Counted from the stretch's first letter, positions 37,320 to 64,000 are shown. The stretch is 64,000 nt of DNA from an uncultured delta proteobacterium (GCA_963707125.1 CAVPOU010000004.1:84241-148240); one strand, 5' to 3'. Notes: a model not told the origin generated them from the letters alone. A program made the numbers and translations.

Positions 37320-37324
37320 CGGCC

Positions 37325-47577: not shown

Positions 47578-47676
47578 GTGTTGCCTCCTTGGTTGAGTGT
47601 TTGAACGTCCGTGATCGCGTTAGTCAGGGTTTAGGCAGCATGCGCGCCGCCAGATGAAACCATTGATCCGTTTGTG

Positions 47677-47890
47677 CTATCGAGCTACCTCTTCGATATC
47701 CGGCAATTGCCAGCTCCTATCGAAGTAAGATTCTGTCGGTGCATAGAGACGCAAATATGCAAACCAACCTTTTCCCGGAACAGTCGGTATCCAGTTCTTT
47801 TCAAGACCCTTGGGTGGTTCAGGGCCAAAATAGAGATCCACCGAGCCATCTTCGTTCTTGACAAGATCCATTCGGGAATCGAGCCCGGCA
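47677..47890 (-). pseudogene. C-terminal remnant of a DUF1254/DUF1214-family gene
   Basis: ..GLDSRMDLVKNEDGSVDLYFGPEPPKGLEKNWIPTVPGKGWFAYLRLYAPTESYFDRSWQLPDIEEV aligns with the C-termini of the genes at 57969, 59475 and 61046. The N-terminal ~400 aa are absent. Confidence 0.6.
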
Positions 47891-48042
47891 ATAGGGGCAA
47901 CGCCGCATTGGCGCCGATGCAGGCGGCGCCAACGCCGCCCATCACCCGCCGCAGGCCTTCTGTGCACCATAACCAGCTAACTTCGGCCGTCGGTCTGCAT
48001 GGGCGTTGTTAGCTGGCAGAACCACCGTCGCCCATCCACGAG

Positions 48043-49602
48043 TTACCTCTTCTCAGGCCGGAAGATGGTATTCCAGTCCCGCTTCATGTCCACAACGAGC
48101 CAGCCGCGCTTGGGGGCCTCCTTGAGGGCTTCGACAAGCTTGCCGGTACTCTTCGTCTTGGCATCATAGGCATATTCGCGTTCACTGTCGGTATGGTGGA
48201 CGATGAGGCCGAAACTAGGGCGCGGGTTGTTGATCGTGGTGTACTGCAACATCGCGTGGTCGCCGTCACTGTTCCCACAACATATCGTAGGTCGCCGGCC
48301 GATAAACTGATGAATGCCGACTGGCTTGCCCTCCTTGTCGTTGACGAATAAATAGTCGAGTGTTTTTGTCAGCACCGGTCCGCTGTCGCGTAGCTCGAAT
48401 GTCGTCCGCGCTGTCGAGCCGACAACCTGCTCCGGTGGTATGCCGTAAACGCGCTCCACCCAGACGCGCATGAAGTCCGCGCCGCCACCGGAAACGATGA
48501 AGTTCTTGAAGCCATTTGCCCGCAGATGGCGCAGGAGTTCCTGCATGGGTTGGTAGGTGAGTTCGTCATAGGGCCTGCCATATCGCGGATGTTTGGCCGA
48601 TGTGAACCATGCCTCCACGGCGTCACGAAACTCGTCGATCGTCATCCCTGCATGGGTGAGTGCCAAGACCTGCATCAGGCCATCGAAGTGTTCGCCTTCC
48701 AGGAGTTTTGAAAGTTCGCCGGCCAAGGCGGCTTGCACCATGGGATCCGAAGCGAGCTTGGGCTCAGTGAGGATGCGTCGGTTCAGTTCGTCGATGGCAA
48801 AGGCTGCCTGAAACGGCATCGGATTCTCCGGCCAGAGAGTGCCGTCGTTGTCGTACACGGCAATGCGTTCTGCCAGTGGCAAGAAGTCGGGTGATTCTTC
48901 CTTTGTCACCTTGGCGATGAACGCGAGGATCCCCTGTTTGGCGGGGCCATCGTTCCAGGAAGGCAGCGGATCAGTACAGTGAAGGTCATAGAGCTTCCTT
49001 TGTGCGACGCCATAATCCCCCAGCTGGTAGAGGCTCACGGATACGGCCCGGACGGTGAAGGCCTCGAATGGCTCGGCTTTCAGAGCGTCCACAAAGTCAC
49101 GGGTCCCTATACCGACGGTCAGATGAGGGTGGTAGTTCATGCCGGTGCGGGGTCCGACGAAGTTGTTCACGTAGTCCACGGTCGGCTGGCTGATCGCCCC
49201 GCCGTCGGGGCGGGGCGCAAAGGCCTCGCCGGTCCCCTGCTCCACCGCGAACGGGGCGACGGCGTCGATGATCCGTTGCTGAAGTCGGCGCATATCCTCG
49301 GTCGGCTCGATGACGATGCCCACCAACCGGAGATCCTTTTCGGCCAGGGCATAGTAGCCGATCGCATGGCATTCCCAATTCATCGACTGCTCTGCACGCA
49401 GCACTGCGGCCACAGCATTCGCGACCTCGTCGAGGTCCGCCGTCCGCACAAACCGCTGGAGCAGGGTGATGTGCGGCGCGTGGTTGGCATCGAGGGCGAA
49501 ACCGTCCGGATAGCTCTCTCGCAGCCGGGCGTTCGCCGCCTGTGCCTTCTCAACCGTGGCAGCATCTGGATCCAGCAGTATGTTGATCGCGATCAAGGTC
49601 AT
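48043..49602 (-). CDS. Fusion protein: 2H phosphoesterase (LigT-like) N-domain + HAD-superfamily phosphatase C-domain, copy 1
   Basis: AGGAAAGGAGA lies before ATG 49602. Two HxT/S motifs (HAPHITLL, HPHLTVGI). The HAD motifs are AVYDNDGTLW, VSGGG and GNSDGDHAML. Confidence 0.8.
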   Translation of the reverse strand: MTLIAINILLDPDAATVEKAQAANARLRESYPDGFALDANHAPHITLLQRFVRTADLDEVANAVAAVLRAEQSMNWECHAIGYYALAEKDLRLVGIVIEPTEDMRRLQQRIIDAVAPFAVEQGTGEAFAPRPDGGAISQPTVDYVNNFVGPRTGMNYHPHLTVGIGTRDFVDALKAEPFEAFTVRAVSVSLYQLGDYGVAQRKLYDLHCTDPLPSWNDGPAKQGILAFIAKVTKEESPDFLPLAERIAVYDNDGTLWPENPMPFQAAFAIDELNRRILTEPKLASDPMVQAALAGELSKLLEGEHFDGLMQVLALTHAGMTIDEFRDAVEAWFTSAKHPRYGRPYDELTYQPMQELLRHLRANGFKNFIVSGGGADFMRVWVERVYGIPPEQVVGSTARTTFELRDSGPVLTKTLDYLFVNDKEGKPVGIHQFIGRRPTICCGNSDGDHAMLQYTTINNPRPSFGLIVHHTDSEREYAYDAKTKSTGKLVEALKEAPKRGWLVVDMKRDWNTIFRPEKR

Positions 49603-49648
49603 GCGGCTTCTCCTTTCCTGGTAGTTCATGGTGAGTGTGTGTCTAGCT

Positions 49649-49785
49649 AATATGTAGATGTGTGGTTCTTCTTATCTCACATTTCCGATGATGGCCAGAA
49701 GCTTGAGAGAGATCAAGAAGGGTGCACGGGGGTTGGACCCGCTTTGCCGTCTCTGTTGTTTCCGAGCTGGCCATGGCATTTCTTG
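49649..49785. repeat. ~137-bp repeat shared with 53539-53686 (includes the 3' end of a SEC-C-motif reading frame)
   Basis: aatatgtagatgtgtggttcttcttatctcac.atttccgatgatggccagaagcttgagagagatcaagaagggtgcacgggggttggacccgctttgccgtctctgttgtttccga.ctggccatggcatttcttg is nearly identical in both copies. Confidence 0.75.
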
Positions 49786-51010
49786 TATGAGCGCTGCGCA
49801 GGGGCAGGAGGCGTTGCGGCGGTTTGCGAAAGTTTGCGGCGGGGCTTCCTCCTGCGCGAGCAGCTCTATGATTTTCGGAGACGGCGCGCGTCGAATGAGT
49901 AACTCGGTGAGAATTTTCAGCGAGGTCGGGCGTGCGTAAAAAACGATTTATAGCCGCACACAGGTAATTGAGTGCGGGCTCGCATCGGGGGTGGTCAAGA
50001 ACGATTTTAGGGGCACTCGGTGGCAGGCAAACAAATACTGGCATTGACGACAAGAACGGACAGGTTCGCGCTTGTCTGACGAACTTGTGCTGCTTTCCGA
50101 GTCCACGAGCTCGAAAGGGAGTTTGCATTATATTCCAGATAGTAGTCCGGTTCCACGAAGTGATCACAGGAATAGAGATCGCCGTTGTGCTCCAGTGCTA
50201 TGCCCAGGCCGCAGGTGGGACCGAAAATGCATAACGTTCCCGCCATCCCAGCCATCCGGCCAGGGCTCCGTCGAAATTGAGGACGAAGGTCCGCCCACAT
50301 CCCTTTCACCCATTCGTCAAAGATCTCAATCAAAAACCGGCCGCACTTCCCCGCGCTGAACGGATCGGTCGTGACCTCGTGCTTTCCTGAACGCGCTTCA
50401 TTTTTCCGCTCCACAATGGGGATGAACTGGAGATACGGACGTCGATTCATCCTGAAGAACCGGTAGACTTCTAGAGGATGATCAGCGTTCTGGCGTTGAC
50501 GGTGCAAAGGACATTGAACGCGACGCTATGTTCTTGCAGCAGCTTGGCCCCTTGACCGCTCGTTCGCATGTCTCTCGGCCGCCTTTATCTTTGCGGTAGA
50601 AGTCGTGCAGCTCTTAGGCCCGTCGAGACTGAGTCCGATCAAGAAGCCGTTTTCTCGAAAGATGACACCACTCCTCATCAAGCAAAACGCCGTTGGTCTG
50701 GAAGGTGTTCTCGATCCAGGTGCTGGGACGGCGGTATTTTCTGAAGCTCCAGGGAGCGCCGAAAGAAATCTAGCCGCATCAGCGTCGGCTCTCCGCCCTG
50801 CCAGGCCACGGTGACTTGAGGAACCTGATGAGCTTCCAGGAGCTGCTGGATATACGGGTCGAGAACCTCTTCCGACATCCGGAAATACCCGGATAAAGCC
50901 CTTCTCTTGAGGAAAAAACATAAGCACAGTGAGGTGCAGGCCGATCCTGTGGCTTGGCATGATATGGAAGGCGGTGGAAACTTTTGGAGGCGTGGTTTGT
51001 ATTCATTGGT
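49713..51010 (-). pseudogene. Anaerobic sulfatase-maturating enzyme (radical SAM, AslB/AtsB-like) with multiple frameshifts
   Basis: Pieces lie in three frames: ..AKP/GSACTSLCLCFF..RMSEEVLDPYIQQLLEAHQVPQVTVAWQGGEPTLMRLDFFRRSLELQK.. (50678..50878); ..FLIGLSLDGPK..; ..HPLEVYRFFR..LQFIPIVER..FDEWV..LCIFGPTCG..LEHNGDLYSCDHFVEPDYYL.. (50007..50507); ..CRQCQYLFAC..ALNYLCAA..; and a SEC-C-like ..NASCPC..KKCHGQ tail. Confidence 0.65.
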
Positions 51011-51137
51011 TTCCTTGGTTGAGGGATGTTCATATGGCCGTGGGGCTTGCAGGGCTTCATGGAGGTGCTACTTTTCTTGTCAGGACCGGCAGCGCGCTCG
51101 CGCTGCCGGCTCCGATCCTGTTACTGCCGCGCCATAA

Positions 51138-53417
51138 TCATGCGCATCTCGGCTCGCTATCTTCGATCACATCGCCGCTGACGTCGAACGTCACCTGTGG
51201 ATCGTACGGTGAACCAAAGGGCGGCTCGTAGAACGGCGCACCGGCGCGCCAGGATCGGCGCCGACGATCATCGCTCCGGTTAGCCCCAAGGTGAAAGGCG
51301 TGGTGTGAGGGAAATCGGCCTGGCCGACGAGTTTGCCATCGATGTAGAGCTGGGCGCGGCCGGGAGTGCCCTTGCCATTGGCGAAGTCCGGCGGGCCGGT
51401 CACTTCGAATTCGAAGCGCAGATCGTGGCGCTGGCCGGGATCGGGACGGTGCTCGCCACCTGCAGATAGTCGCGAGCCACGTAATTTTGAACGTATGGAG
51501 TTTGCCATCTTGCACGTAGAACGAATAGCCGCCATCCACGCCTCCAAAAGAAACGAGAGCCCTTCCGCTCCGCCCGAGGGGATCTCCACGTCTGCGGTGA
51601 TGCTGTGCGTGCGGTTGAGTGTAATCGCTCCGGCATTATAAGGCACAGCCTGCGTGTGCGGGTAGAAGGTGTAATGCGTGCGGTTCTTGGTGAGCTGCGG
51701 GCGTTCATCCGCGTAGCGCTGCACGCCGCGGCCATCCACCGGAAGCACGTGGTATTTCCCTGCTTCGACATACCAGGTAGCGATCATCTCGATCAGCTTG
51801 GAGCGGTTCCCTTCGGCGATGTTATGGTTTTCGGCGAAATCCGCGTCCACATGGTAAAGCTCCCAGCTTCTAGCATCCAGCTCGGTCAGTTTTCAGCCGG
51901 GATCGGATTCCAAAACCGGTACCTGCCTCGGTGAACGAAGGGCCGGGCCAGGGGCAGACTGCCCGCCAGCCATCGTGGTAGATGGAACGGTGGCCGAGCA
52001 TTTCGAATACTGGGTGTGATGCTTGCTCTCGGCTTGGGCATCATCGAGAGTATGCGCGAAACTGACACCCTCGATCGGGGATTGCTGGACGCCTTTGATA
52101 GAGGCAGGGGGTTCCAATCCGACGAGTTCCAGCACCGTAGGCATCCAGTCGATGACATGCGCATACTGGGTGCGCACCTCGCCCTGGCTTTGAAGCCGCT
52201 GGGGAAGTGCACGATGAAGGGATCGCAGATCCCACCCCGATAGGTCTCGCGCTTCCAACGGCGGAACGGTGTGTCGCCCGCCCACGTCCAGCCCCAGGGA
52301 TAATGGTTGAAAGTGGTCGGGTCGCCCAGCTCGTCAATGTGCTTGATATTCGTTTGCAGGTCTTCTTTCACGTTATTGAAGAACAGATTCTCGTTGACCG
52401 AGCCGGTCGGTCCGCCTTCGGATCTGGCGCCGTTGTCGGAGACTAACATGATCAAGGTATTGTCAAACTCGCCGAGTGGATTTCAGGAAGTCAAACATCC
52501 GGCCCAGATGGAAGTCGGTGTGCTCCATGAAACCGGCGTAGACCTCCATCATATGGGCGTACAACCTCTTTTCGTCCGCCGAAAGCGTATCCCACTGCGC
52601 CACATCGGGATCGTGCCGGGACAGCTCGGCATCCGCCGGGACGAGGCCCATCTCTTTCTGGCGGGCGAAGGTCTTTTCGCGGTACACATCCCAGCCCTCG
52701 TCAAACTGCCCTTTATACTTGTCCGACCATTCCTTGCGCACTGATGCGGTGCGTGCATAGCGCCGGGAGCAAAATACATGAAGAAGGGTTTATCAGGCGC
52801 CACCTGCTTGGCGTCGGCGATGAAGCTGATCGCCTTGTCCACCAGGTCCTCGGTGAGGTGGTAGCCCTCTTCGGGTGTCTTGGGAGGCTCCACCTGGTGG
52901 TTGTCATAAACCAGCTCGGGGTAATACTGGTGGGTCTCGCCGCCCATGAAACCGTAGTAACGCTCGAAACCGCGTCCCAACGGCCAGCGGTCATACGGTC
53001 CGCAGCCGAAATCTGGTCGGCCGGAGTCAGATGCCACTTGCCAACGGCATAGGTGTTATAGCCGTTCTGCAGCAGGATCTCCGAGAGGAAACCGTTCTCG
53101 AAGGGGATGTTCGCGTTATACCCGGGAAACCCGTCGAACCTTCGGTATGCAGGCCATGGCGTTGGAATGATGATTGCGCCCGGTAGGATGCAGGCGCGCG
53201 TGGGCGAGCATAACGCCGTGGTATGCATATTGTTGAAACGCAGACCGTTTTCCGCCAGGGCATCCATATGGGGGGTTTTGATCGGGTTGCCGTAACAGCC
53301 AAGCTGCCCAAAGCCGACATCATCCAGCACGATGAACAGGACGTTTGGCGCCCCTTCCCGGGCGCGCGTGGGCTCGGGCCAGGCCTGTAGAGGTGTCGAA
53401 CGTGCGGCCGACAACAC
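51138..53417 (-). pseudogene. Large (~760 aa) arylsulfatase with at least five frameshifts
   Basis: Seven overlapping ORF pieces are collinear with one sulfatase: ..NVLFIVLDDVGFGQ..TTALCSPTRACIL..(52713..53417); ..PYDRWPLGRGFERYYGFMGGETHQYYPEL..(52549..53037); ..KEWSDKYKGQFDEGWD..(52463..52741); ..MLVSDNGA..(51886..52455); ..VIDWMPTVLEL..(51893..52285); ..WYVEAGKYHVLP..(51191..51850); ..VTFDVSGDVIED (51138..51539). Confidence 0.75.
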
Positions 53418-53538
53418 CGTTAAAGGCAGTTCCGGGCTTGCACTCTTTTAGGGACATAGCGATAGCCTCCTTATTAGGAAATTAGAAATCTACAACCGAT
53501 AGGAATATCTTCAACCTAGTTTCCGCTCGTGCCATTCA

Positions 53539-53706
53539 CATTGCGCCGAATATGTAGATGTGTGGTTCTTCTTATCTCACCATTTCCGATGATGGCCAGA
53601 AGCTTGAGAGAGATCAAGAAGGGTGCACGGGGGTTGGACCCGCTTTGCCGTCTCTGTTGTTTCCGATCTGGCCATGGCATTTCTTGAATTTGAGCCCGCT
53701 GCCGCG
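53539..53706. repeat. Second copy of the 49649-49785 repeat, extended by a degenerate SEC-C-motif remnant
   Basis: The - strand reads ..[32 protein letters not shown] (CPC lost). 53669-53706 is also shared with 56320-56357. Confidence 0.7.
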
Positions 53707-53743
53707 GGCATCTCGCGAGCCCCCCTTGATAGCCAATTCTTTG

Positions 53744-55525
53744 CTAAAACCCATAAACCAACGGTGCCAGTGTCAGCACCACCGCACCGATTATGAGAGT
53801 GAGCGGCACCCCGACTCGCGCAAAATCCCCGAAGGTGTAGCCACCGGGTTCCTGGACCATCAGGTTCGTTTGAAAGCCTGCAGGGTTGATGAAGGCACAG
53901 GTAGAGGCACTCATCAATACCATGGCGAACGGCATGAAACTCACCCCCAGACTGTTGGCCAGGGATAAGGCCACCGGAAACATGAAGGCGGCGGCGGCGG
54001 CGTTCGTAATGATGTTCGTCATGAGGAGGGTGCCCACATAGACGGCGCTGAGGGCTATCACGGGACTGCTGCCGCCAATGCCGGCAATGACGCTAGCGAA
54101 TGCTGCAGACAGGCCACTGTTCGTCACCGCGGCTTCCAGGCCCACTGCGGCGCCCAAAACCACGATGGTTTGCCAGTCCAAACTACCCCACACCCTGCTG
54201 CTGGTCAGGCAGCCGGTGAGGAGCATGGCGCCTGTGGCCAGCAGGGCGGCATTGAGCATGCTCATCAGGCCAGTGGCCGTCACCGTCACCATGGTTGCCG
54301 TGATCACCGTGGCGATCACGGCCCTGTCCACCCGCTGCACCCGGTATCCTTCCAAGCGCCGCGTCAGGATAAAATCCAATTCCCGGCGGTTTTCGTAGAA
54401 GAAGGCATCGCTGACTTCGACGATGGCGGCATCTCCCGGTTCCAAGCGGAGCTCCGCCAAAGGCTGCGGCGGCGCCTGGCCGTGGCGGGAAATGCCCACC
54501 AGCATCATTTCGTAAGGGCTTCCGGGCAGCGGCAGGTCGGCTATCCGGTGCCCGATGGCCGGCGACCGGGCAGAGATAACGAGTTCGACGAGATGATGCT
54601 GGTAGCGCTTGGTCCTCATGGGGCTGGCGAAGACGGGGACCAGGCCCAGAGTCGTCCACAACTCGGGGAGGACGTCGGCCTGGGCGTAAAAGGTGAGCAC
54701 ATCTCCGGCTTCCAGCCTGCAGTGCGGCCCGGTTTCGATGGGAGTTCCCTGGCGGGTGACGGCTTCCAGGGTATAGCCGATGGGTTTCGCAAAACCAGCT
54801 TCCAGGAGCGTCTTACCCGCTAAAAAGGAATTTTCCTCCACCGCCAGTTCGCTCCGGTAGATACGTTTTTGTACGCCTGCCTCATCCTGACTTGTCCGGT
54901 CCGGTAAAAGACGCGTTCCCAGCAAAATCATAAAGGCCAACCCTGCCAGAGTTGCGGGCATGCCGATCCAGAAGGGATCGAACACCCCCAGGGGAGCCAT
55001 TCCCTTCAGTGTCCCTCTTTCCAAAGCGCTTGACACCAGACCGCCAATGATCAGGTTTACCGATGAGCCGATCAGGGTCATGCTCCCGCCCAAGATTGCC
55101 ATGAAACTAAGCCCCATGTATATCTTGGAACCTGCCAAACCGGTGGCGCGCGCTAAAGAACGCACCACCGGAATCATCATTGCCACCATGGGCGTATTGT
55201 TCAATAGGGCACTCCCCAGGGCCATCGGTGGAAAAATTCTGATTTGGGCCGAGGTTACGGATTCCGGCCGGCCGACGAGCCGCTGCGACAGGAGAGATAT
55301 AGCGCCGGTGGCGTACATGCCCGCAGCCACGGGAAACAAGGCGGCCACCGTCATCACTCCGGTATTGCTGAATCCTGTCAGGAGCGCTTCGGCCGGGGCC
55401 AATTTCAAGGTCATGGCCGTGGTCAAGGTTCCCATGAAAACCAGCCAGGCCGGAAAGCGGCCCCAAGCCAGAAACGCAAACATTATGACCAGAATGCTCA
55501 CCATCAGCCAGGCGTTCACCGACAT
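53744..55525 (-). CDS. SLC13/DASS-family anion permease with central TrkA-C domains
   Basis: 593 aa. N- and C-terminal multi-TM halves flank two TrkA_C-like segments (..LAGKTLLEAGFAKPIGYTLEAVTRQG..LEAGDVLTF.. and ..IGHRIADLPLPGSPYEMMLVGISRHG..LEPGDAAIV..). Confidence 0.8.
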   Translation of the reverse strand: MSVNAWLMVSILVIMFAFLAWGRFPAWLVFMGTLTTAMTLKLAPAEALLTGFSNTGVMTVAALFPVAAGMYATGAISLLSQRLVGRPESVTSAQIRIFPPMALGSALLNNTPMVAMMIPVVRSLARATGLAGSKIYMGLSFMAILGGSMTLIGSSVNLIIGGLVSSALERGTLKGMAPLGVFDPFWIGMPATLAGLAFMILLGTRLLPDRTSQDEAGVQKRIYRSELAVEENSFLAGKTLLEAGFAKPIGYTLEAVTRQGTPIETGPHCRLEAGDVLTFYAQADVLPELWTTLGLVPVFASPMRTKRYQHHLVELVISARSPAIGHRIADLPLPGSPYEMMLVGISRHGQAPPQPLAELRLEPGDAAIVEVSDAFFYENRRELDFILTRRLEGYRVQRVDRAVIATVITATMVTVTATGLMSMLNAALLATGAMLLTGCLTSSRVWGSLDWQTIVVLGAAVGLEAAVTNSGLSAAFASVIAGIGGSSPVIALSAVYVGTLLMTNIITNAAAAAFMFPVALSLANSLGVSFMPFAMVLMSASTCAFINPAGFQTNLMVQEPGGYTFGDFARVGVPLTLIIGAVVLTLAPLVYGF

Positions 55526-55561
55526 AGTCTCTCCTTACCGTCATAAACCTGACAAGTTACT

Positions 55562-55731
55562 TTACAGGCTCTTATGCAGGGCCTCGCCCTTGATCCGGCG
55601 AACCTCTTTGTCGTCCGGGTTCAAGAGGTAAGCGCAGTTGACCAGTTGAGCAGCCCAGGCGTATTCCTTCTTCCCTCTGGCTTGTCTGGCATGGACGATC
55701 ACCTTGTCCTTGCCTCCCATCAAATCCAGCA
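55562..55731 (-). pseudogene. Fragment of an alkyl/aryl-sulfatase (MBL-fold, dimerisation-domain region)
   Basis: The - strand reads LLDLMGGKDKVIVHARQARGKKEYAWAAQLVNCAYLLNPDDKEVRRIKGEALHKSL*. This resembles the ..GG.dkvl..A......G.Y.WaaeL.n..v...P.n..ar.l.a.al..L segment. It is cut at its 5' side by the family 3 repeat. Confidence 0.45.
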
Positions 55732-56044
55732 GTAACGTTCAAAAGTGTATGAATGGGACCGACTGATCTGGGCAGGCCTGGAACCTTTTCCTTCGTTCCA
55801 AGGCCGCCCGGGGCGGCCAAGTCTCCCGGGCTGGTCTTTTCTACGGTTTTTCGACGGGGGAGTTCTGCCCCCTCCCGCTGTTCCCCTCGCGTCCGCTTGG
55901 GGCCAGGGGTTTCCCCCATCGATAAACCGTGAAAAGACGGCGCCCTCCCGACAGTCACTCCGGAAAAGGCCCCAGCCCTGTCCGAGGCGCTGTTTCAGAT
56001 GTCACATCTTCTGCTAAGCCCATGCAAACACTTTTGAACGATAC
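55732..56044. repeat. Family 3 MITE-like element, full copy (313 bp)
   Basis: TIR GTAACGTTCAAAAGTGT / CACTTTTGAACGATAC. The sub-terminal ..gggcaggcctggaacc.. / ..ggccccagccctgtcc.. are as in 45644-45905, but the interior differs. Confidence 0.7.
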
Positions 56045-56155
56045 CAATCCAGCAGGCGTTCGGCTTCTTGTTTGAGCGGAAGTCAAAAGATCTGCGTAGC
56101 GTCCTGATCTTACCACCCCATGATGAAGTGCCTCTTATCGGATCGAGGGTAAACA

Positions 56156-56299
56156 AAATTTGTGCCAAGAGGATCGACAGGCCGATTATTGACACAATGA
56201 ATTGATATGATTTGATATTCATGGAGGAATAAGATTTCCCGATCCGGAAGGCGATGGTCCGGTTTTCGTGGCATGTAGAGGAAGCGTTAAATATCACGG
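56156..56299. repeat. ~145-bp non-coding repeat, copy 2 (see 27566-27709)
   Basis: Direct comparison with copy 1, same orientation. Confidence 0.75.
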
Positions 56300-56424
56300 G
56301 AAACACGGTTCCGGCCATGGCATTTCTTGAATTTGAGCCCGCTGCCGCAGGGGCAGGGGGCATTGCGGCCGATTTTCTCAGGGCCCGCCTCCGCCCGCCC
56401 ATCGGCCTTGGCCAGCAGGGTCAT
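56287..56424 (-). CDS. Small SEC-C-motif ORF (45 aa) or the 3' remnant of a larger SEC-C-tailed gene
   Basis: [45 protein letters not shown] contains an intact CPCGSGxKxKKCHG metal-binding motif. The frame stays open upstream into the neighbouring gene, so the start is uncertain. Confidence 0.4.
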
Positions 56425-56465
56425 CACCTGCGCAGCCGGCCGCGGCGCACACCAACGAAGCGCGG

Positions 56466-56825
56466 TTAGTGTTCCAGGCCGTCGTTGATGATGCCCAGGA
56501 CCTTCGGCGGCACCTCGATGACGGCCGGGCCCGTCTGCTTCAGGTCGAGGCTGAGGCTGGTGTAGATGCTCTCGGTGTTGTAGGTCAGGCCGATGGCGAT
56601 CGACTTGCCTTCACCCGGCTCGACGTACACGATCATGCCCCCGGTCTCGCTGACTCCGTAGTCGCGCGGGTGCGCGTCCAGAAAGGCCTGCATCGACATC
56701 GCGGGCATGAAGTCGAGGTAGGCCTGCGCGGCGCGCTGCAGGTCGAGTTGGTCGTAGAGCTTGCGAATGGTCTCTGCCGTCGGATAGCCGCCTTCGTATC
56801 GCAGTTCGTCTAGATTGCTGATCAT
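56466..56825 (-). pseudogene. N-terminal (DUF1254) fragment of a DUF1254/DUF1214-family gene
   Basis: GGAGGAATC lies before ATG 56825. MISNLDELRYEGGYPTAETIRKLYDQLDLQRAAQAYLDFMPAMSMQAF.. aligns with the N-terminus of the 57969 gene. It stops after ~119 aa, where the repeat/SEC-C region begins. Confidence 0.6.
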
Positions 56826-56844
56826 GATTCCTCCAAAATGCTCA

Positions 56845-57720
56845 TCAAGGGTTGGTGACGTGTGGCTGAGCGCGGGCGACCTGCTTGCGCCAGCGCTCAT
56901 AGGGAACGGCGAGCAACAGGGCGGCGAGCAGGTAGAGCAGGACCGTCCCGATGACGGTCGCCTCGTGCTCCGGGAAGGCGCCCGATGCGAGCAGCAGCGC
57001 GATGGCTGGGTGCCGGGAGACCGTGGCCGAGGCGAGCGCTCCACGGTTGCCCGGATCCGGGCCACCGAGCAGGTGCCCGACGAGCAGGCCAAACGCGACG
57101 ACGGCCAAGGTGACGACGAGCGTGCCCTGGCCGATCACGCCCAGGATCGCCCGGCCATGAACGATGAGCAGGACCACCGCGCCGAGCAGGAGGACCACTC
57201 CACCCACCCGGTCGGCAAGGGCCGCAAGCCGCGGCGCGGCGCCCGGGTAGAGGCGGGCCAGGCCCATGCCGACGGCCAGGGGGGCCGCGACGGTGACAAG
57301 AAGCACCACCTCCACGGCCAGGGGATCCAGGGCGGTAGCCACTCCGAATATCCGGTAGGCGATCCAGATCATGAGCGGAACGACCAGGAGCGCGACGCCG
57401 GATGACAGGACCTGCAGGCCGATGACGTAGTCGCTCTGGCCGCCGACCGCGGCTCCCTTCTTGGCCCACGGAGGCAGCACGGGCGAGACCGCGCACCCCA
57501 GCAGCACCGCGCCAACGCCCGCCTGGAGCGGCACCAGCCACACCAGCACGAGCACGAAGGCGGGCAGCGCCACGTACATCGCGACCATGGCGCGAAGGGC
57601 CAGCGCCGGCCTGCGCAGCAGCAGCAGCGGCTGCTCCAGGCGCGCCCGGATGCCGATGGCAACCACGAGCAGCACCACACCCAGGAGCAGCACCAGCTTG
57701 AGGATCGTCTCAGGATTCAC
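56845..57720 (-). CDS. Polytopic membrane transporter (bile acid:Na+ symporter / SBF-like fold suspected)
   Basis: 291 aa with ~9 hydrophobic segments. The family assignment rests on overall look only. Confidence 0.55.
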   Translation of the reverse strand: MNPETILKLVLLLGVVLLVVAIGIRARLEQPLLLLRRPALALRAMVAMYVALPAFVLVLVWLVPLQAGVGAVLLGCAVSPVLPPWAKKGAAVGGQSDYVIGLQVLSSGVALLVVPLMIWIAYRIFGVATALDPLAVEVVLLVTVAAPLAVGMGLARLYPGAAPRLAALADRVGGVVLLLGAVVLLIVHGRAILGVIGQGTLVVTLAVVAFGLLVGHLLGGPDPGNRGALASATVSRHPAIALLLASGAFPEHEATVIGTVLLYLLAALLLAVPYERWRKQVARAQPHVTNP

Positions 57721-57968
57721 GGTCTCTCTCCTCCGTCAGTTGAAGGGACACCTCGGCAACAGCCGCTGGCTGCAGAAACGAGGCGACAACTACCTTGACG
57801 CGCGCCGATCCGCAGGCGGCCAGCCCGAGTCACGGCGCCACCACGCCGGCCAGGCGCAGTGGCCACGCGATGGCTGCGCGCGGGGTGGGGCGGGGAACGA
57901 GGCGATTCATGGTCATGTCGTTCTGCATGGGGTTCTCCTTGCAAGCGTCAAATTGTTTGCTCTTCAAC

Positions 57969-59366
57969 TTAGACTTTCACAATGTCATCCGGTTTCCAGG
58001 TTTGATCGAAGAAGGGTTCCAGCGGACCGTACAGACGAATGTAAGTAAACCAGCCCTTGCCGGGAACGGTTTGGATCCAGTTCTTTTCCTTCCCTGCTGG
58101 CGCGCTAGGGCTGAAATAGATATCGTGGGATCCATCTTCGTTCTTTTCAGGTTCATCAAAGCTGTTGATACTTGGCTTGGGTTGATCGGTTTGGAGCAGC
58201 GAGCGCGTACCGGGATCATACAATGTCACAGACCAAAAGTTATTGATGGGGATGTTTGGCGGAAGGTGGAGCTTGTAGGTTTGGCCGCCGTCGAGATAAT
58301 CGCCATTGGCATCGACATAAGCCGCCATATACTGGGATCCGGCTCCGACCATTTTATGCACCATGGCAGGTGTCACACAAATGGCGGTGAAGTGGAACAG
58401 GATTCTGGCATCCAGGTTTCTGGCGCCATTCTTCAAGAACTCATGGCTGCCGCCGACAAAGATATATTCCCAGTTGCGATCCGGGTACACCTTCGTTTCC
58501 GCTTCACGTGACTGATAGGCGATCGCCCGGGCCATCCCCAAACCTGTTTGGGCGCCTTTATCGAGAATCTTTTTCATCCGTTCATCGGGGTTGAACGCTT
58601 TGCCTTTCTCGATGCCCAGCGCTCTCAACAGCCCTAACTGCTCCGATCCAAATGCTTCCGTTGGCTCATATTGGATCACCTTGTCCAGGTTGACAAAATA
58701 CTGGAAATCATTTGGGTGGGTGGTATCTGCCGATAATCCGCTTACGTTGATGATATTGGGCTTTCTCGGCCCATCCTTTAACGGATAAACCGCGCAATTA
58801 TCGCCATACCATTTTATAGCCTGCTCACCCATACCGCTGATTTGTTGGCTGGCACGCGCCATAATCCACACCTTGTAGGTGCGCGACCGACCCACAAAAT
58901 ATCCTTCGGGAACTTCACCTTCATAATCCGGCGGCAGCAGGAGGTACTTCCCCCCCTTTCCTTTATCCGGGCCGACCATGCCGAAATCGACAATGTACCG
59001 GAAATAAGCATCATTGGCCATGCCCAAAACCTGCGGGGGTATCTCAACAACGGTGGGGCCATCCTTCTTGAGGTCAATGATGCAAGAAAAATACACACTC
59101 TCTGTATTTCCTGTCAACATATACGGTGTAGCGTCCAGCAAATCAGCGGCAACAGCAAGGTCAGAACATTCCATACACCCAAATCCTTTCTCCTGCCCCT
59201 CAAGCAATGAATACATCGACATTGCCGGCATGAAATCAAGGTAGGCCTGGCACGCACGTTGAAAATCGAGCGCATCAAACAGCTTTTGAGCGGTCTCTTT
59301 GGTTGGATAACCGCCCAGCATAAATTCAAAATCACCGATCGGTGTAGTTAGTTTTTCCGTGCTCAT
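57969..59366 (-). CDS. DUF1254 + DUF1214 domain protein, intact (lower-GC paralog)
   Basis: AGGAGA lies before ATG 59366. ..GGYPTKETAQKLFDALDFQRACQAYLDFMPAMSM..GPDKGKGGKYLLLPPDYEGEVPEGYF.. and C-terminal ..EDGSHDIYFSPSAPAGKEKNWIQTVPGKGWFTYIRLYGPLEPFFDQTWKPDDIVKV. Confidence 0.85.
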   Translation of the reverse strand: MSTEKLTTPIGDFEFMLGGYPTKETAQKLFDALDFQRACQAYLDFMPAMSMYSLLEGQEKGFGCMECSDLAVAADLLDATPYMLTGNTESVYFSCIIDLKKDGPTVVEIPPQVLGMANDAYFRYIVDFGMVGPDKGKGGKYLLLPPDYEGEVPEGYFVGRSRTYKVWIMARASQQISGMGEQAIKWYGDNCAVYPLKDGPRKPNIINVSGLSADTTHPNDFQYFVNLDKVIQYEPTEAFGSEQLGLLRALGIEKGKAFNPDERMKKILDKGAQTGLGMARAIAYQSREAETKVYPDRNWEYIFVGGSHEFLKNGARNLDARILFHFTAICVTPAMVHKMVGAGSQYMAAYVDANGDYLDGGQTYKLHLPPNIPINNFWSVTLYDPGTRSLLQTDQPKPSINSFDEPEKNEDGSHDIYFSPSAPAGKEKNWIQTVPGKGWFTYIRLYGPLEPFFDQTWKPDDIVKV

Positions 59367-59474
59367 AATATTTTCTCCTGAATAATGGTCCACAACCCGG
59401 TTGAATTTAAACTAAAAGTTAGAAGTAAACTTCTTATGCCATAGACTCGCATCAGTGCCTGGAGGTCCCACCTG

Positions 59475-60953
59475 TCACTTCATCTTCGCTACGTCGCCGG
59501 GTTTCCAGGTCTTCGTGAGAGCCGGTTCGGTCGGCCCGTAGAGCCGCAGAACGGCGAAGTACCCTCTCTCGGGCACCGTGGCGAGCCAGTTCTTCTCCTT
59601 GCCCTCCGGGGCTTTCGGCCCGAGGTAGAGATCGGTGCTGCCGTCGGCGTTCTGGACCGGCAAGTCGCGCGATCCGAGCGACGGGAAGGGCTGGCCGTTG
59701 GCAAGGCCCGAAGCGTTCTCGGCTTCGTACAGCGTCACGGACCAGAAGTTCGCGGCCGGCACGTCCTTCGGCATGTTCAGCTTGTAGTTCGTCCCACCGG
59801 TCAGGGGCACGCCATCGCCGTCGGTGAAGGCGATGACGTAGAACGCTCCCTTGCCGGGAATCTGCGAGAGCATGCCGGGGCTGATCGAGTAGTAGTTCGA
59901 GAAAAACCACGGGCGGCAATCGACATCGAGAGCCCCGCCGCGATCCACTCGCCGCCAACTCAGGTCGAGCTTGCCGCTCGGCTTCTCCGCCGTCGCATCG
60001 GCCATCGGATTGACCCAGCGGCGGTCGGGGTACATCCGGAACGACCGACCGGACACGACCTCATCGAAGGCGATCACGCGGCTCATCTTGTACGCCGACT
60101 TCGCCGCGCGGTCGAGGATGCCCCGCATGCGTTCGTCCGGCTGAAACGGCTCCCCCTTCACGATGCCGAGTCCGGCCAGCATGCCCATCCAGTCCGGGTC
60201 GGCCAGGTGCGGCCCTTCGGCGTCCACCAGCTTCTTCAGTTGGTCGAAGGCCGTCGCGTCGCTGATCGGGAGCATGTTCGCCGGTACGCCCGAAGCATCC
60301 GGGAACTTCATCGGTTTGGCCTCGCCCTTCAGCGGGTAGATCTTCGTCTTCTCGATCAGCTCGACCGGCGGCTTCAGGTCGCTCGCATCGGCATAGAAAG
60401 CCCGGAGAAACACGAACACGTTGTTCGTGCCCGAGCGGCAGACGAAGTAGCCCTCCGGGACTTCGCCCTCGTAGCCCGGCGGCAGGAGCAGGAACTTTCC
60501 GCCCTTCCCCTGATCCGGGCCGAAGAAGCCGAAGTCGCCGGCGTACTTGCCGCCATCGACGGGGATCGGCCGTTGCCAGAAGTCCAACAGGATGCCCTGC
60601 AACATGGGCGGGGCGTCGAACACGAGCGGGCCGTCCTTGCCGAGATCGACGTAGCTCATCGCATAGATCACGTCCGAGTTCGGCGTGGTCACGAGCGTCC
60701 TGGCGTCGAGGCGCTTCTTCCACACCGGCAAGACGTTGTGCCCCTCGCCGAACGTCTTCTCGGAGCCGACCTTCATGCCGAGCGTATTGATGAGCGGCAA
60801 CGCCCAGAGGTACGTTTGCGTGGCGCGGTGGTAAAGCATTTCATCGCGTAGCGTCTGCGCCGTATCCGCCGTGGCTCGGTTTTCCACGAAAGGAAGGTTG
60901 GCGATCTGCTCTTGATGCTGAATGGCTGGCGACGTGTTAAGCTTTATGGACAT
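59475..60953 (-). CDS. DUF1254 + DUF1214 domain protein, intact (high-GC paralog)
   Basis: GAGGAG lies before ATG 60953 (MSIKLNT..). ..GPDQGKGGKFLLLPPGYEGEVPEGYF..ADGSTDLYLGPKAPEGKEKNWLATVPERGYFAVLRLYGPTEPALTKTWKPGDVAKMK. The 685-aa ORF in the track is an upstream read-through of this frame. Confidence 0.85.
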   Translation of the reverse strand: MSIKLNTSPAIQHQEQIANLPFVENRATADTAQTLRDEMLYHRATQTYLWALPLINTLGMKVGSEKTFGEGHNVLPVWKKRLDARTLVTTPNSDVIYAMSYVDLGKDGPLVFDAPPMLQGILLDFWQRPIPVDGGKYAGDFGFFGPDQGKGGKFLLLPPGYEGEVPEGYFVCRSGTNNVFVFLRAFYADASDLKPPVELIEKTKIYPLKGEAKPMKFPDASGVPANMLPISDATAFDQLKKLVDAEGPHLADPDWMGMLAGLGIVKGEPFQPDERMRGILDRAAKSAYKMSRVIAFDEVVSGRSFRMYPDRRWVNPMADATAEKPSGKLDLSWRRVDRGGALDVDCRPWFFSNYYSISPGMLSQIPGKGAFYVIAFTDGDGVPLTGGTNYKLNMPKDVPAANFWSVTLYEAENASGLANGQPFPSLGSRDLPVQNADGSTDLYLGPKAPEGKEKNWLATVPERGYFAVLRLYGPTEPALTKTWKPGDVAKMK

Positions 60954-61045
60954 GATTGACTCCTCTTGGGTTAAAGATATGGATCGAACGCAAGCACGCT
61001 CTCCGGAAGCGAGTTTTGCATCGCTGCCGGAGAGCGGCGAACAAG

Positions 61046-62451
61046 TCACTTGACGCGAACGAGATCCGGCAGTCCCCAGCTGCGATCGAAGTAGGTTTCG
61101 GTCGGCGCATAGAGGCGGAAGTAAGCGAACCAGCCACGACCGGGGGCCGTCGGAATCCAGTTCTTCTCCTTGCCCTTCGGTGCCTCTGGGCCGATGTACA
61201 AGTCCACGGAACCGTCGGCGTTCTTGATCAGGTCTTTCCGGGAATCCAGCCCGGCGATGTCGTGCTTCGTCTCGATGAAGCTGCGGGTCTCCGTGTCGTA
61301 AAGCGTCAGCGCCCAGAATTGCTTGGCGGGGGCATTCGGCGGAACGCGGAGCGTATAGTTGTTGCCGCCCTGCAGCCATTGCCCGTCCTTGTCTTTCTGG
61401 ATGCCGATGTAGACCTGTCCTAGTCCGGGAGTTTTGCTTGTCATCCCGGCGGAGAGGGTCATGGCCTCGTAGAACCAGGCCGTCGCGCTCATCGAGAGCG
61501 GTGTGGTACTTGGTCTCCTGGTCGGCATCCAACAGGATGGCGTTCTTCCAGTGGGTATCGGGCCACAGACTTGGCTTCCTTCTGGCGCTTGGCGTAACTG
61601 TGCGCCCGCGCCATCGACTCGCCTACCACCGCCGCTTGTTCCAGAATCTTCTTCTGCCGCGCGTCCGGCTCGAACTTCTTGCCCTTTTCGATGCCTAGCG
61701 GCTTGAGCATGGCCACCATCATGCGGTCGCGGTCGTGGACGGGTTCCTCATTGAGCATCTTGGAGACGAGCTGCCAGAACTCGAGCCCGGTTCCCGGCCA
61801 AGCGTACCACTTCTTCCCTTCTGCGGGAATGATCCGCGTCTTGCGTGGGTTGTCTCGTTTGGCATAGGGATAGGCTTGATAACTGCTCTTGAGCACTTCC
61901 GCTTGTTTCGGGTCCGTGGTCAGCACGCGAAACCCATGCAAGATGTTGTTTGCGGGAGATTCGAAGACGCGGTAGCCCTCGACGCCTTTGGGGGCTTTCT
62001 GGCCGGGCGGCACCACCAGGTACTTGCCACCTTCGCCCTTGTCGGGCCCACTCAGGCCCATGTCGGTGATCGGGCGCTGCCACAAGTCGAGGAGGCCGCC
62101 GGCAGTCAGACCTTTCGGATACTGAATCACCAGCGGGCCGGTTCGTTCCAGGTTCACGAAGCCAACCAGGTACGTCGTGGTGTCGTTCGGTGTGAGGATC
62201 CCCAACTTGTCGCGAAAACTCACAAATTGCACGAGATCGCCATCCTCCTGGCCGAACACAGTCTCGTACTGCTCCTGCCATTTCGCGAAAGAGACGATCG
62301 GAATCGCCCACAGGTAGGCTTGCGTGGCTCGCTGGAAATCCATCTCTTCATACAGCTTATCGACGGTTTCGTTGGATGGATACCCACCCTCGAACCTCAG
62401 CTGGCCAATGCGGGTTTCCATGCCACCGGTGGTGGGGAGCTTCGTTTTCAT
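61046..62451 (-). pseudogene. DUF1254 + DUF1214 domain protein with two frameshifts (near 61565-61570 and 61481-61487)
   Basis: GAGGAGG lies before ATG 62451. ORF 61489..62466 (..GGYPSNETVDKLYEEMDFQRATQAYLWAIP..GPDKGEGGKYLVVPPGQ..) passes to a short middle frame (WPDTHWKNAILLDADQETKYHTALDER), then to ORF 61046..61528 (ATAWFYEAMTL..ADGSVDLYIGPEAPKGKEKNWIPTAPGRGWFAYFRLYAPTETYFDRSWGLPDLVRVK). Confidence 0.75.
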
Positions 62452-62560
62452 GTTGTACCTCCTCATCTTGAATGGGTTAGATGATCATAGTTTGCAGGCT
62501 TCACCTTCATGACAGGAGCATCCTAATGCCTTCGCCTATCCAACATCACCCTTCCACGAG

Positions 62561-64000
62561 TTACCTCGACTCGGGCCGGAAGATGGCATTCCAGTCCCGC
62601 TTCATGTCCACAACGAGCCAGCCGCGCTTGGGGGCCTCCTTGAGGGCTTCGACAAGCTTGCCGGTGCTCTTCGTCTTGGCGTCATAGGCATATTCGCGTT
62701 CACTGTCGGTATGGTGGACGATGAGGCCGAAACTGGGGCGCGGGTTGTTGATCGTGGTGTACTGCAACATCGCGTGGTCGCCGTCACTGTTCCCACAACA
62801 TATCGCAGGTCGCCGGCCGATAAACTGATGAATGCCGACTGGCTTGCCCTCCTTGTCGTTGACGAACAAATAGTCGAGTGTTTTTGTCAGCACCGGTCCG
62901 CTGTCGCGTAGCTCGAATTTTGTCCGTGCTGTCGATCCGACAACCTGCTCCGGTGGTATGCCGTAAACGCGCTCAACCCAGACGCGCATGAAGTCCGCGC
63001 CGCCACCGGAAACGATGAAGTTCTTGAAGCCATTTGCCCGCAGATGGCGCAGAAGTTCCTGCATGGGTTGGTAGGTGAGTTCGTCATAGGGCCTGCCATA
63101 TCGCGGATGTTTGGCCGATGTGAACCATGCCTCCACGGCGTCGCGAAACTCGTCGATCGTCATCCCTGCATGGGTGAGTCCCAAGACCTGCATCAGGCCA
63201 TCGAAGTGTTCGCCTTCCAGGAGTTTTGCAAGTTCGCCGGCCAAAGCGGCTTGCACCATGGGGTCCGAAGCGAGCTTGGGCTCATTGAGGATGTGTCGGT
63301 TCAGTTCGTCGATGGCAAAGGCTGCCTGAAACGGCATCGGATTCTCCGGCCAGAGAGTGCCGTCGTTGTCGTACACGGCAATGCGTTCTGCCGGTGGCAG
63401 GAAGTCGGGTGATCCTTCCTTTGTCACCTTGGCGATGAACGCGAGGATCCCCTGTTTGGCGGGGCCATCGTTCCAGGAAGGCAGCGGATCAGCACGGTGA
63501 AGGTCATAGAGCTTCCTTTGTGCGACACCATAATCCCCCAGCTGGTAGAGGCTCACGGATACGGCCCGGACGGTGAAGGCCTCGAATGGCTCCGCTTTCA
63601 GAGCGTCCACAAAGTCACGGGTCCCTATACCGGCGGTCAGATGAGGGTGGTAGTTCATGCCGGTGCGGGGTCCGACGAAGTTGTTCACGTAGTCCACGGT
63701 CGGCTGGCTGATCGCCCCGCCGTCGGGGCGGGGCGCAAAGGCCTCGCCGGTCCCCTTCTCCACCGCGAACGGGGCGACGGCGTCGATGATCCGTTGCTGA
63801 AGTCGGCGCATATCCTCGGTCGGCTCGATGACGATGCCCACCAACCGGAGATCCTTTCGGCCAGGGCATAGTAGCCGGTCGCACTGGCATTCCCAATTCA
63901 TCGACTGCTCTGTACGCAGCACTGCGGTCACAGCATTCGCGACCTCGTCGAGGTCCGCCGTCCGCACAAACCGCTGGAGCAGGGTGATGTGCGGCGCGTG
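62561..64000 (-). CDS. 2H phosphoesterase + HAD fusion, copy 2 (runs off the window end; contains a 14-codon out-of-frame patch)
   Basis: Collinear and ~95% identical by eye to 48043-49602. NWECQCDRLLCPGRKDLRLV replaces NWECHAIGYYALAEKDLRLV because of two compensating 1-nt indels (~63855 and ~63884). Confidence 0.75.
   Translation of the reverse strand, partial: HAPHITLLQRFVRTADLDEVANAVTAVLRTEQSMNWECQCDRLLCPGRKDLRLVGIVIEPTEDMRRLQQRIIDAVAPFAVEKGTGEAFAPRPDGGAISQPTVDYVNNFVGPRTGMNYHPHLTAGIGTRDFVDALKAEPFEAFTVRAVSVSLYQLGDYGVAQRKLYDLHRADPLPSWNDGPAKQGILAFIAKVTKEGSPDFLPPAERIAVYDNDGTLWPENPMPFQAAFAIDELNRHILNEPKLASDPMVQAALAGELAKLLEGEHFDGLMQVLGLTHAGMTIDEFRDAVEAWFTSAKHPRYGRPYDELTYQPMQELLRHLRANGFKNFIVSGGGADFMRVWVERVYGIPPEQVVGSTARTKFELRDSGPVLTKTLDYLFVNDKEGKPVGIHQFIGRRPAICCGNSDGDHAMLQYTTINNPRPSFGLIVHHTDSEREYAYDAKTKSTGKLVEALKEAPKRGWLVVDMKRDWNAIFRPESR

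Follow-up and report, generated by a model that had tools for sequence, protein, structure and literature searches.

The 64,000-nucleotide stretch of an uncultured delta proteobacterium that was analysed here (the window) contains, on the minus strand between positions 56466 and 64000, an array of DUF1254/DUF1214 genes behind a gene in which a 2H phosphoesterase domain is fused to a HAD phosphatase domain (2H::HAD). Judged by sequence comparison, the window appears to hold two copies, diverged from each other and decayed in different ways, of one conserved operon, anSME-2H::HAD-p1-p2-sulfatase, where anSME is a radical-SAM/SPASM sulfatase maturase and p1 and p2 are divergent DUF1254/DUF1214 paralogs. 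With moderate confidence we read these as two remains of an operon for the hydrolysis of an anionic sulfate/phosphate ester. A preliminary description of the same DNA had proposed an uncharacterised module and, as a conjecture, the processing of an anionic (sulfated or phosphorylated) substrate; the neighbourhood surveys reported below support in part this view, namely that the module recurs and is connected with sulfate-ester metabolism.

Apparent copies of one operon in the window

The operon is intact in a metagenome contig (L091), where it belongs to a longer series of genes on one strand: a sigma-54 activator, DUF362, anSME, 2H::HAD, p1, p2, the sulfatase, a solute-binding protein, CitMHS and, further on, SBF. 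Copy B of the window (64000-59457) is collinear with L091 from the 2H::HAD gene (L091 6978-8942) to the end of p2 at 87-90% nucleotide identity, p1 being around 87% identical. Copy A (50950-46036) matches L091 in the 2H::HAD gene (93%), the last 196 nucleotides of p1 (90%, and 84% at the amino acid level) and the sulfatase (81%). In copy A, p2 and the greater part of p1 are gone. Copy B no longer has the sulfatase; p2 is followed there by p3, the BASS-like transporter and the truncated start of a fourth paralog, beyond which an anSME remnant is found that is 87.5% nucleotide identical to L091 6526-6645 (Table 1). Between them, the two copies still have the sulfatase, one 2H::HAD gene and the p2-p3 pair in intact form, along with two transporters; the maturase linked to the operon has become a pseudogene.

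Table 1. Features of the window discussed in the text, with positions in the window and the evidence for each
Feature	Position	Strand	Evidence and remarks
2H::HAD fusion, copy B	62561 to beyond 64000	-	5' end cut by window end; PF13563 and PF12710
p1, DUF1254/DUF1214 pseudogene	61046-62466	-	ORF start 62466/62451; PF06863 on 5' ORF, PF06742 on 3' ORF; two +1 frameshifts near 61585 and 61510
p2, DUF1254/DUF1214, 492 amino acids, intact, no signal peptide	59475-60953	-	Both Pfam domains, 93.4 and 107.1 bits
p3, DUF1254/DUF1214, 465 amino acids, intact	57969-59366	-	Both Pfam domains, 76.5 and 112.1 bits
Divergent BASS/SBF-like secondary transporter, 291 amino acids, GC 0.71	56845-57720	-	TIGR00841 E 1.9e-6
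Truncated head (first ~117 amino acids) of fourth DUF1254/1214 paralog	56466-56825	-	Pfam DUF1254 E 1.3e-3 only
anSME-type maturase, C-terminal remnant	56311-56439	-	tblastn with L001 anSME, 58% over 43 amino acids, E 8e-11
Alkylsulfatase dimerisation-domain fragment	~55561-55719	-	PF14863 on 52-amino-acid L083 gene, mapped to the window via 99.7% alignment
CitMHS/DASS-type anion transporter, two TrkA_C domains, intact	53744-55525	-	PF03600 E 4e-56, PF02080, TIGR00785 'dass' E 1.8e-25
Segment of 3.76 kb with anSME and sulfatase pseudogenes	49649-53686		138-bp direct repeats 49649-49785 and 53549-53686, 98.6% identical
Second sulfatase, N-terminal fragment, pseudogene	52713-53417	-	PF00884 E 1.4e-21, profile positions 1-112 only
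anSME (radical-SAM/SPASM maturase) pseudogene, several frames	49723-50950	-	tblastn with L001 anSME, three pieces, E 9e-39 to 4e-17
2H::HAD fusion, copy A, intact, 519 amino acids from MTLIAIN start	48043-49602	-	PF13563, PF02834, PF12710
p1-type DUF1214 tail remnant, last ~69 amino acids	47677-47889	-	PF06742 E 3.6e-14
Cys-type formylglycine sulfatase, 513 amino acids, intact, no signal peptide	46036-47577	-	PF00884 E 6e-52, 177 bits
ORF, open reading frame.

The DNA shared by the two copies (48022-49482 and 62540-64000) is 97.3% identical over 1462 nucleotides, which bears out the near-identical second 2H::HAD gene of the preliminary description. The encoded proteins are identical in 453 of 479 residues and differ by a patch of 9-10 residues in copy B, where 9-10 codons are out of frame between a +1 and a -1 indel (63884 and 63856, 28 nucleotides apart). 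The duplication stops 21 nucleotides past the 2H::HAD stop codon, and the DUF1214 remnant beside copy A therefore lies outside it; this remnant is only 73% DNA-identical to the p1 tail beside copy B. Both the remnant and the intact sulfatase beyond it had been noted before and are found by Pfam. It had also been argued that the pairing of a 2H::HAD fusion with a DUF1254/DUF1214 gene occurs twice. Both occurrences are real, but they appear to be decayed descendants of one operon and thus cannot be counted as two independent observations of linkage.

In related metagenome-assembled genomes (L002, L003, L024) the 2H::HAD gene is 92-94% DNA-identical to that of the window, and the neighbouring sulfatase only 85-87%. 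The fusion gene seems to have been recently spread or homogenised. The two 2H::HAD genes of the window are likewise far more alike than their flanks, which points to gene conversion or recent replacement of that gene.

Window positions 41993-59512 are matched at 97.7-99.7% identity, and positions 36453-41986 at around 90%, by an independent contig (L083). This reproduction of 36453-59512, together with the low mutual identity of the paralogs (35-40%), rules out that the paralogs are assembly duplicates, a possibility that had been raised earlier. Three larger differences separate the two sequences: L083 lacks 49788-53548 (it joins 53549 to 49787), lacks a 2.8-kb repeat-bracketed stretch (42299-45094), and carries, between p3 and the transporter, additional DUF fragments of around 1 kb. 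The first concerns the segment between the 138-bp direct repeats, and because this segment is missing from an otherwise 99.4-99.7% identical contig it looks like a repeat-mediated indel polymorphism. The large truncations in the window are structural and real. In addition, the two sequences differ by isolated indels of one nucleotide, including one in the transporter and one in p3, of which the window has the intact version.

The 2H::HAD fusion and its sulfatase neighbour

All three Pfam domains of the copy A fusion score above their gathering cut-offs (PF13563, 43.3 bits against 27; PF02834, 23.8 against 23.3; PF12710, 41.4 against 27). The 2H part has two HxT motifs (HAPHITLLQ and HPHLTVGIG), which are kept in an alignment of 16 homologues, and the HAD motifs DNDGT, SGG, K435 and GNSDGD are invariant in homologue alignments. 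The HAD half matches the solved structure 4OVY (E 7e-98). When a HAD profile was run against the PDB, the match to 4OVY improved to 9e-143 and the only other hit was 4GXT; both are uncharacterised, and no characterised HAD protein was detected. For the 2H part no characterised close relative was found. In relatives from Hyphomicrobium, Gemmatimonadales and planctomycetes (proteins P0062, P0071, P0083 and P0085) the domain order is reversed to signal peptide-HAD-2H. That both orders exist provides a separate line of evidence for a joint action of the two domains.

The family of the fusion is large. To specify the genomic context of the HAD domain, we inspected the best 80 genome loci, which derive from many phyla, and scored the neighbours within 10 kb of the HAD gene; a sulfatase was counted as orthologous when at least 40% identical to that of the window (46036-47577). 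An orthologous sulfatase was present in 34 of the 80 loci and was located directly upstream on the same strand in 25 of these; counting any sulfatase-family ORF the number rose to 53. The formylglycine-generating enzyme FGE was found in 18 loci and a 2H domain in 10; 11 loci have a DUF1254/1214 gene, 8 of them together with the orthologous sulfatase, and a handful have an SBF-like gene. Where both occur, sulfatase and HAD genes are usually direct neighbours and co-directional, with gaps of around 100-300 bp, across distant phyla. A case annotated by PGAP is the series transporter-FGE-arylsulfatase-HAD on plasmid pMNOD02 of Methylobacterium nodulans. On these counts the conserved core is formed by sulfatase and HAD, with the 2H domain and the DUF genes as recurrent accessories, and not by DUF genes and the 2H::HAD fusion as had been supposed. 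A survey of this kind had been called for in the preliminary description; it supports a recurrent, though facultative, linkage of sulfatase, HAD and DUF genes across phyla.

In four loci the place of the HAD gene next to the sulfatase is taken by a gene encoding a TAT signal, a Metallophos and a 5'-nucleotidase-C domain, and thus of the UshA/CpdB type (L113 9197-9640, L117 6574-8465, L126 5291-7261, L158 9457-11454). The DUF pair also occurs beside this gene and a sulfatase. It looks like a non-orthologous replacement of the phosphoesterase, and in conjunction with the permuted order of 2H and HAD it ties the two phosphoesterase halves together.

The intact sulfatase of the window, with the formylglycine motif CTAGR at residues 56-60, is a usual member of the S1 sulfatases. 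Among solved structures it is closest to PsFucS1 (7AJ0, subfamily S1_13), which acts on fucoidan, a relationship that does not fix the substrate. Two more specific assignments were considered and rejected. The match to the choline-sulfatase model in the N-terminal part is weak and the HAD domain has no detectable similarity to a characterised phosphatase, which lends no support to a choline-sulfatase/phosphocholine-phosphatase couple. Nor is a phosphonate monoester hydrolase supported, as the 60 best solved relatives listed are named sulfatases, except for one putative sulfatase similar to YidJ of E. coli.

DUF1254/DUF1214 paralogs occur in pairs

DUF1254/DUF1214 is a large family that is found in bacteria and eukaryotes, and its structures were solved between 2007 and 2012. 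Proteins in which both PF06863 and PF06742 scored above the gathering cut-off (22.2 and 25 bits, respectively) were assigned to it. Pfam agrees with the three paralogs that had been described on the minus strand, and gives a weak match for the head fragment. The two domains of p1 are recovered from separate ORFs, the 5' ORF scoring 78.5 bits and the 3' ORF 117.2 bits. Mapping of intact orthologues onto 61046-62466 located the two frameshifts reported for this gene between around 61585 and 61500; both are +1 shifts, as the reading frame traverses all three frames. The fourth paralog is represented by a head that is 85% identical at the amino acid level to the N-terminus of an intact paralog of 461 amino acids in contig L086, where this gene trails an SBF gene by a gap of 19 nucleotides, as in the window.

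Identities among p1, p2 and p3 are between 35 and 40% (40% for p3 and p2), which makes their divergence ancient and supports the earlier view that they are not recent tandem duplicates. The described contrast in base composition was also recovered: the GC content at third codon positions (GC3) is 0.575 in p3, compared to 0.87 in p2, 0.88 in the transporter, 0.92 in the sulfatase and 0.74 in both 2H::HAD copies. On this basis p3 looks compositionally foreign.

The p2 protein aligns with the solved structure of VPA0735 over residues 16-490 (PDB 2P3Y/3VB9; phmmer E 9e-61), and an AlphaFold2 model, with a pLDDT of only 65, matches 2P3Y as well (Foldseek E 1.2e-32, TM-score 0.66). Foldseek connected the model to structural-genomics orphans only (VPA0735, VPA0106 and a Burkholderia orphan) and revealed no similarity to nucleases or recombinases. 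As had been stated before, the family is without an established function: none was found in the papers searched (including searches with the Pfam, InterPro and COG identifiers and with VPA0735 and VPA0106) or in NCBIfam, which holds a model neither for the DUF proteins nor for the 2H::HAD fusion. A paper on Malassezia speculates that DUF1254/DUF1214 is a glycosyl-hydrolase-like jelly roll and offers nothing more, and a paper on Pseudomonas concerns LexA regulation only.

Orthologues of p2 (71-96% identical) are found in many soil and freshwater metagenomes, and the 80 best metagenome loci were used for a second survey, in which a second paralog at a distance of at most 400 bp on the same strand was taken as a partner. 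Such a divergent paralog was present in 61 of the 80 loci; it was missing from only 10 of the loci that extend far enough in both directions. The partners were of three types: clade B (at least 23 loci), p1-type (around 21) and p3-type (around 8). Clade B differs from clade A in the glycine-rich loop, which in the latter reads G-PDxGxGGK(Y/F)LLLPPGY. The p2-p3 pair recurs in L096, L104 and L105, and in the cyanobacterium Leptolyngbya ohadii (L087) both members are 84% identical to their counterparts in the window. The conserved adjacency of p2 and p3, together with the high frequency of a second paralog, indicates that the array is built from obligate-looking pairs. The data suggest that p2 represents the 'common' subunit type, with p3 as its likely partner in the window, and the pairing of divergent paralogs suggests a two-subunit protein.

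The sulfatase and/or the HAD gene flanked the DUF genes in 15 of the 80 loci; with a minimum locus length of 8 kb the count was 11 of 34, and with 15 kb it was 6 of 18. Among 121 other neighbouring ORFs scanned with Pfam only LysR regulators recurred (6 of 34 long loci); clustering of ORFs picked out two-component regulators too. Arrays like that of the window were seen in the distant lineages Phycisphaerales (L073, with three paralogs, two sulfatases and a HAD gene), Synechococcus (L011) and Agrobacterium (L173, on pAt), and in the related contig L086. The latter has the largest DUF1254/1214 array that we observed (2424-20638): a 2H::HAD gene, a sigma-54 activator, ABM, DUF202, six DUF1254/1214 genes or fragments with an SBF-like gene inside, SBP_bac_3 and CitMHS. 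In Leptolyngbya (L087 7273-14643, NKFP01000007.1) the p2 and p3 orthologues lie between an alkylsulfatase of the metallo-beta-lactamase type with UPF0114 and a SulP carrier, with transposase fragments on the flanks; this cassette looks mobile and links the DUF pair to another class of sulfatases. A lead from the sulfur-regulated plasmid pANL of Synechococcus elongatus PCC 7942 was dropped. Its lone DUF1254 gene (anL05, COG5361; L171 29941-31365) is located beside a replication gene and not among the srp genes, and its down-regulation has been attributed to plasmid competition.

Compartment and transport

A Sec or TAT signal peptide is carried by the majority of the p2 orthologues and of the HAD and 2H-HAD proteins, and by 37 of 47 sulfatase-family ORFs examined at the HAD loci. 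The versions of the window clade, Leptolyngbya and Synechococcus begin right at the conserved core, without one. It had been noted that the paralogs show no signal peptide; this holds for the window, but is a peculiarity of the clade, as most orthologues of all three enzyme types that were examined from other lineages are exported. The signal peptide is present or absent jointly for the sulfatase, the HAD or 2H-HAD protein and the DUF protein p2, and the versions that lack it are accompanied by SBF-like, CitMHS/DASS or SulP carriers. From this switch, seen in a handful of lineages, we infer that the partners would act on the same substrate, presumably a small anion that can be imported. The joint change of compartment is thus the strongest indirect sign of a common substrate.

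Of the two carriers beside the module in the window, the one inside the array is divergent. Its TIGR00841 score (27.3 bits) is weak, the curated cut-off being 326, it has no Pfam match at E 0.01 or below, and its similarity to NTCP (7VAF) in the PDB is marginal (E 0.23). The orthologue in L086, within a DNA block that is 91.7% nucleotide identical to the window, exceeds the PF01758 cut-off slightly (25.8 against 24.3 bits). A membrane protein with nine transmembrane segments had been described at this position; the membrane protein is there, but hydropathy gives only a rough number of around 8-10 helices. SBF-like genes recur beside DUF arrays in L086, L104, L106 and L109, and CitMHS genes accompany the module in L086 and L091 as well.

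Proposed pathway and alternative explanations

Based on the above, the following scheme can be proposed for the operon. In the clade of the window the anionic ester would be imported by the BASS-like and DASS carriers: the enzymes lack signal peptides and BASS-like, DASS/CitMHS or SulP carriers lie alongside, so that import would have to come first. In most other lineages examined, the enzymes have signal peptides and would work extracytoplasmically. Sulfate would be removed by the Cys-type sulfatase after its maturation by anSME; a cyclic phosphate or phosphodiester would be opened by the 2H domain, and the resulting monoester phosphate taken off by the HAD domain, by analogy with the two-step logic of CpdB. 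A two-subunit DUF1254/DUF1214 unit, composed of p2 with p1 or p3, may bind this substrate or its product, or act on either. What the sequences show is the gene content with its homologies and intact catalytic motifs, the decay, the recurrent linkage, the pairing of the paralogs and the co-variation of compartment; the common substrate, the order of the reactions and the heteromer are inferences. A bolder version, which we consider possible but tentative, is that the DUF1254/DUF1214 proteins form obligate two-subunit complexes (a p2-type subunit with a variable partner) and constitute a new component, enzymatic or substrate-handling, of a widespread, undescribed sulfate/phosphate-ester pathway with the sulfatase and the 4OVY-type HAD, with or without 2H, that is usually extracytoplasmic and extends from Planctomycetota to Cyanobacteria and Alphaproteobacteria.

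Several observations weigh against this scheme. The module in the window is broken (p1, anSME and the second sulfatase are pseudogenes and copy B of the fusion has the out-of-frame patch) and may no longer be one functional unit. The single-base indels could be assembly errors rather than decay. More than half of the HAD loci lack an orthologous sulfatase within 10 kb, making the linkage facultative, and two thirds of the long DUF loci have neither a sulfatase nor a HAD gene. Both surveys consist of the 80 best matches, neither random nor de-replicated, and since some metagenome loci are near-duplicates the counts overstate the number of independent events. The enrichment rests on a rough, assumed chance linkage rate of around 1%, and the case for a two-subunit protein is one of gene adjacency alone. 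Finally, no biochemical or genetic datum on the DUF proteins, the 4OVY-type HAD or the fusion was found in the papers searched, NCBIfam or the solved structures.

The main rival explanation, which we regard as rather unlikely, is that the locus is no single pathway but a nutrient-scavenging island, in which the sulfatase provides sulfate from organosulfates and the 2H::HAD or HAD protein, in a CpdB/UshA-like manner, phosphate from cyclic nucleotides and nucleotides, the genes lying together only through co-regulation or co-transfer and the role of the DUF proteins being unrelated. The 2H and HAD domains indeed mirror both activities of CpdB, an UshA/CpdB-type gene replaces the HAD in four loci, the neighbouring regulators vary (LysR, two-component, sigma-54 activators) and the linkage is facultative in both surveys. 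However, the sulfatase and HAD genes mostly abut in the same direction in distant phyla, and such tight co-directional adjacency looks like an operon and not like loose clustering. The DUF genes are moreover inserted between the enzymes, a single gene between sulfatase and HAD in Bosea (L050) and the pair between 2H-HAD and sulfatase in L091, and all partners change compartment jointly, the DUF protein included.

The arrangement favoured in the preliminary description, a core of DUF array and 2H::HAD fusion with the sulfatases as loosely associated neighbours, is improbable. It would explain why the fusion gene is directly followed by p1 and p2 in the window and L091, why the DUF pairs of L102 and L111 directly adjoin a gene for 2H or HAD-2H, and why 2H-HAD lies around 6 kb upstream of the six-paralog array in L086. 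Against this stand the frequencies in the HAD survey, in which only 10 and 11 of the 80 loci have a 2H domain and a DUF gene, respectively, and an orthologous sulfatase is three times as frequent. Close relatives of the window (L001 and L003) possess sulfatase, 2H-HAD and SBF and have no DUF gene, and in L087 a DUF pair is found beside an alkylsulfatase without 2H-HAD.

That there is no functional module at all, and that the region is a recombination-prone dump of acquired, decaying genes in which DUF1254/1214 multiplies as 'mobilome' cargo, fits the mosaic composition (GC3 0.52-0.92), the many pseudogenes and remnants, the repeat-bracketed indel relative to L083, the placement of the family under Mobilome in COG and the transposases or integrases near DUF pairs in L087, L172 and L173, but is doubtful given that the same parts are intact and co-directional in L091, L086 and distant phyla, that p2 orthologues are at least 71% identical across phyla and have Sec signal peptides, as for a working exported protein, and that the structural comparison yielded orphans and neither nuclease nor recombinase similarity.

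Other features of the window

The sulfatases, maturase, SLC13-type permease and alkylsulfatase fragment that had been reported around the module are present, although mostly broken (Table 1). A radical-SAM gene further away (4855-6111) bears a weak likeness to anSME (24% identity, E 4e-8) and has no SPASM match. The remainder of the window is chromosomal, with groEL, tRNA-Phe, a fragmented RND efflux operon and various transporters. In the efflux operon (MFP, AcrB and OEP; 35937-41882) the acrB and outer-membrane genes are in pieces, and it is broken in L083 (14912-20455) too. This stretch is 90% identical to L083 while its flanks are more than 98% identical, which suggests a recombination boundary. 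Between the efflux operon and the sulfatase locus a toxin-antitoxin pair of the AbiEi/AbiEii type is found (42766-43371 and around 43400-44100; L083 12850-14092).

Short direct repeats of 70-310 nucleotides, 80-97% identical, occur between genes (41987-42298/44784-45094, 14842-15005/15630-15792/19319-19471, 27562-27712/56152-56303 and 45643-45715/55731-55803), and one of these families flanks groEL. They match no Rfam family and could be regulatory elements or elements resembling miniature inverted-repeat transposable elements. A scan of 55500-64000 for promoters and terminators returned no more sites than in shuffled sequence, and a search of plasmids for near-identical DNA gave nothing useful.

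Significance and comparison with known systems

The present analysis provides first leads for DUF1254/DUF1214, namely the divergent pairs, the recurrent operons with a particular sulfatase and HAD, and the joint change of compartment. Similarly, the 4OVY-type HAD, so far represented by a solved structure only, gains a context, with sulfatase and FGE genes as its usual company. Carriers are available in culture (Methylobacterium nodulans ORS 2060 with pMNOD02, Agrobacterium tumefaciens AF1/95 with pAt, Leptolyngbya ohadii, and Sinorhizobium meliloti with pSymA), and a common substrate, if one is found, would add a step to the environmental cycling of sulfur and phosphorus esters.

For two of the components the closest known proteins are structural-genomics models. 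The proteins VPA0735 and VPA0106 of Vibrio parahaemolyticus (2P3Y, 3VB9, 3U07) share the two-domain DUF1254/DUF1214 make-up, and neither the pairing of divergent paralogs nor the link to sulfatase and HAD was reported in the papers searched. The 4OVY protein, annotated as 'haloacid dehalogenase domain protein hydrolase', belongs to the family of the HAD half of the fusion, but is a stand-alone HAD that lacks the 2H domain and has no assigned substrate.

In its broad logic the fusion would resemble the periplasmic bifunctional metallophosphoesterases CpdB (2',3'-cyclic-nucleotide phosphodiesterase/3'-nucleotidase) and UshA (5'-nucleotidase), in which one exported protein cleaves first a diester and then a monoester, and genes of that family stand in for the HAD next to the sulfatase in the four loci given above. 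The folds are nevertheless unrelated, 2H and HAD as opposed to calcineurin-like and 5'-nucleotidase C-domain: Pfam detects neither the Metallophos nor the 5'-nucleotidase-C domain in 2H::HAD, and the resemblance is a functional analogy only. Furthermore, the version in the window is predicted to be cytoplasmic, and its activity on nucleotides is putative.

The closest parallel as a locus is found in the S1 sulfatase operons for polysaccharides and organosulfates. These likewise have a Cys-type sulfatase with the motif C-x-A-x-R and anion transporters alongside, with a maturase of the radical-SAM/SPASM type adjacent here, although as a pseudogene in the window, and FGE in aerobes. Glycoside hydrolases, lyases and SusC/D genes are absent here; what recurs instead is a 4OVY-type HAD, in some cases with a 2H domain, and pairs of DUF1254/1214 genes, a combination of which no description was found in the literature searched. 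The locus represents a module that persists intact in other genomes, here duplicated and decayed, and is an undescribed variant of the sulfatase loci.

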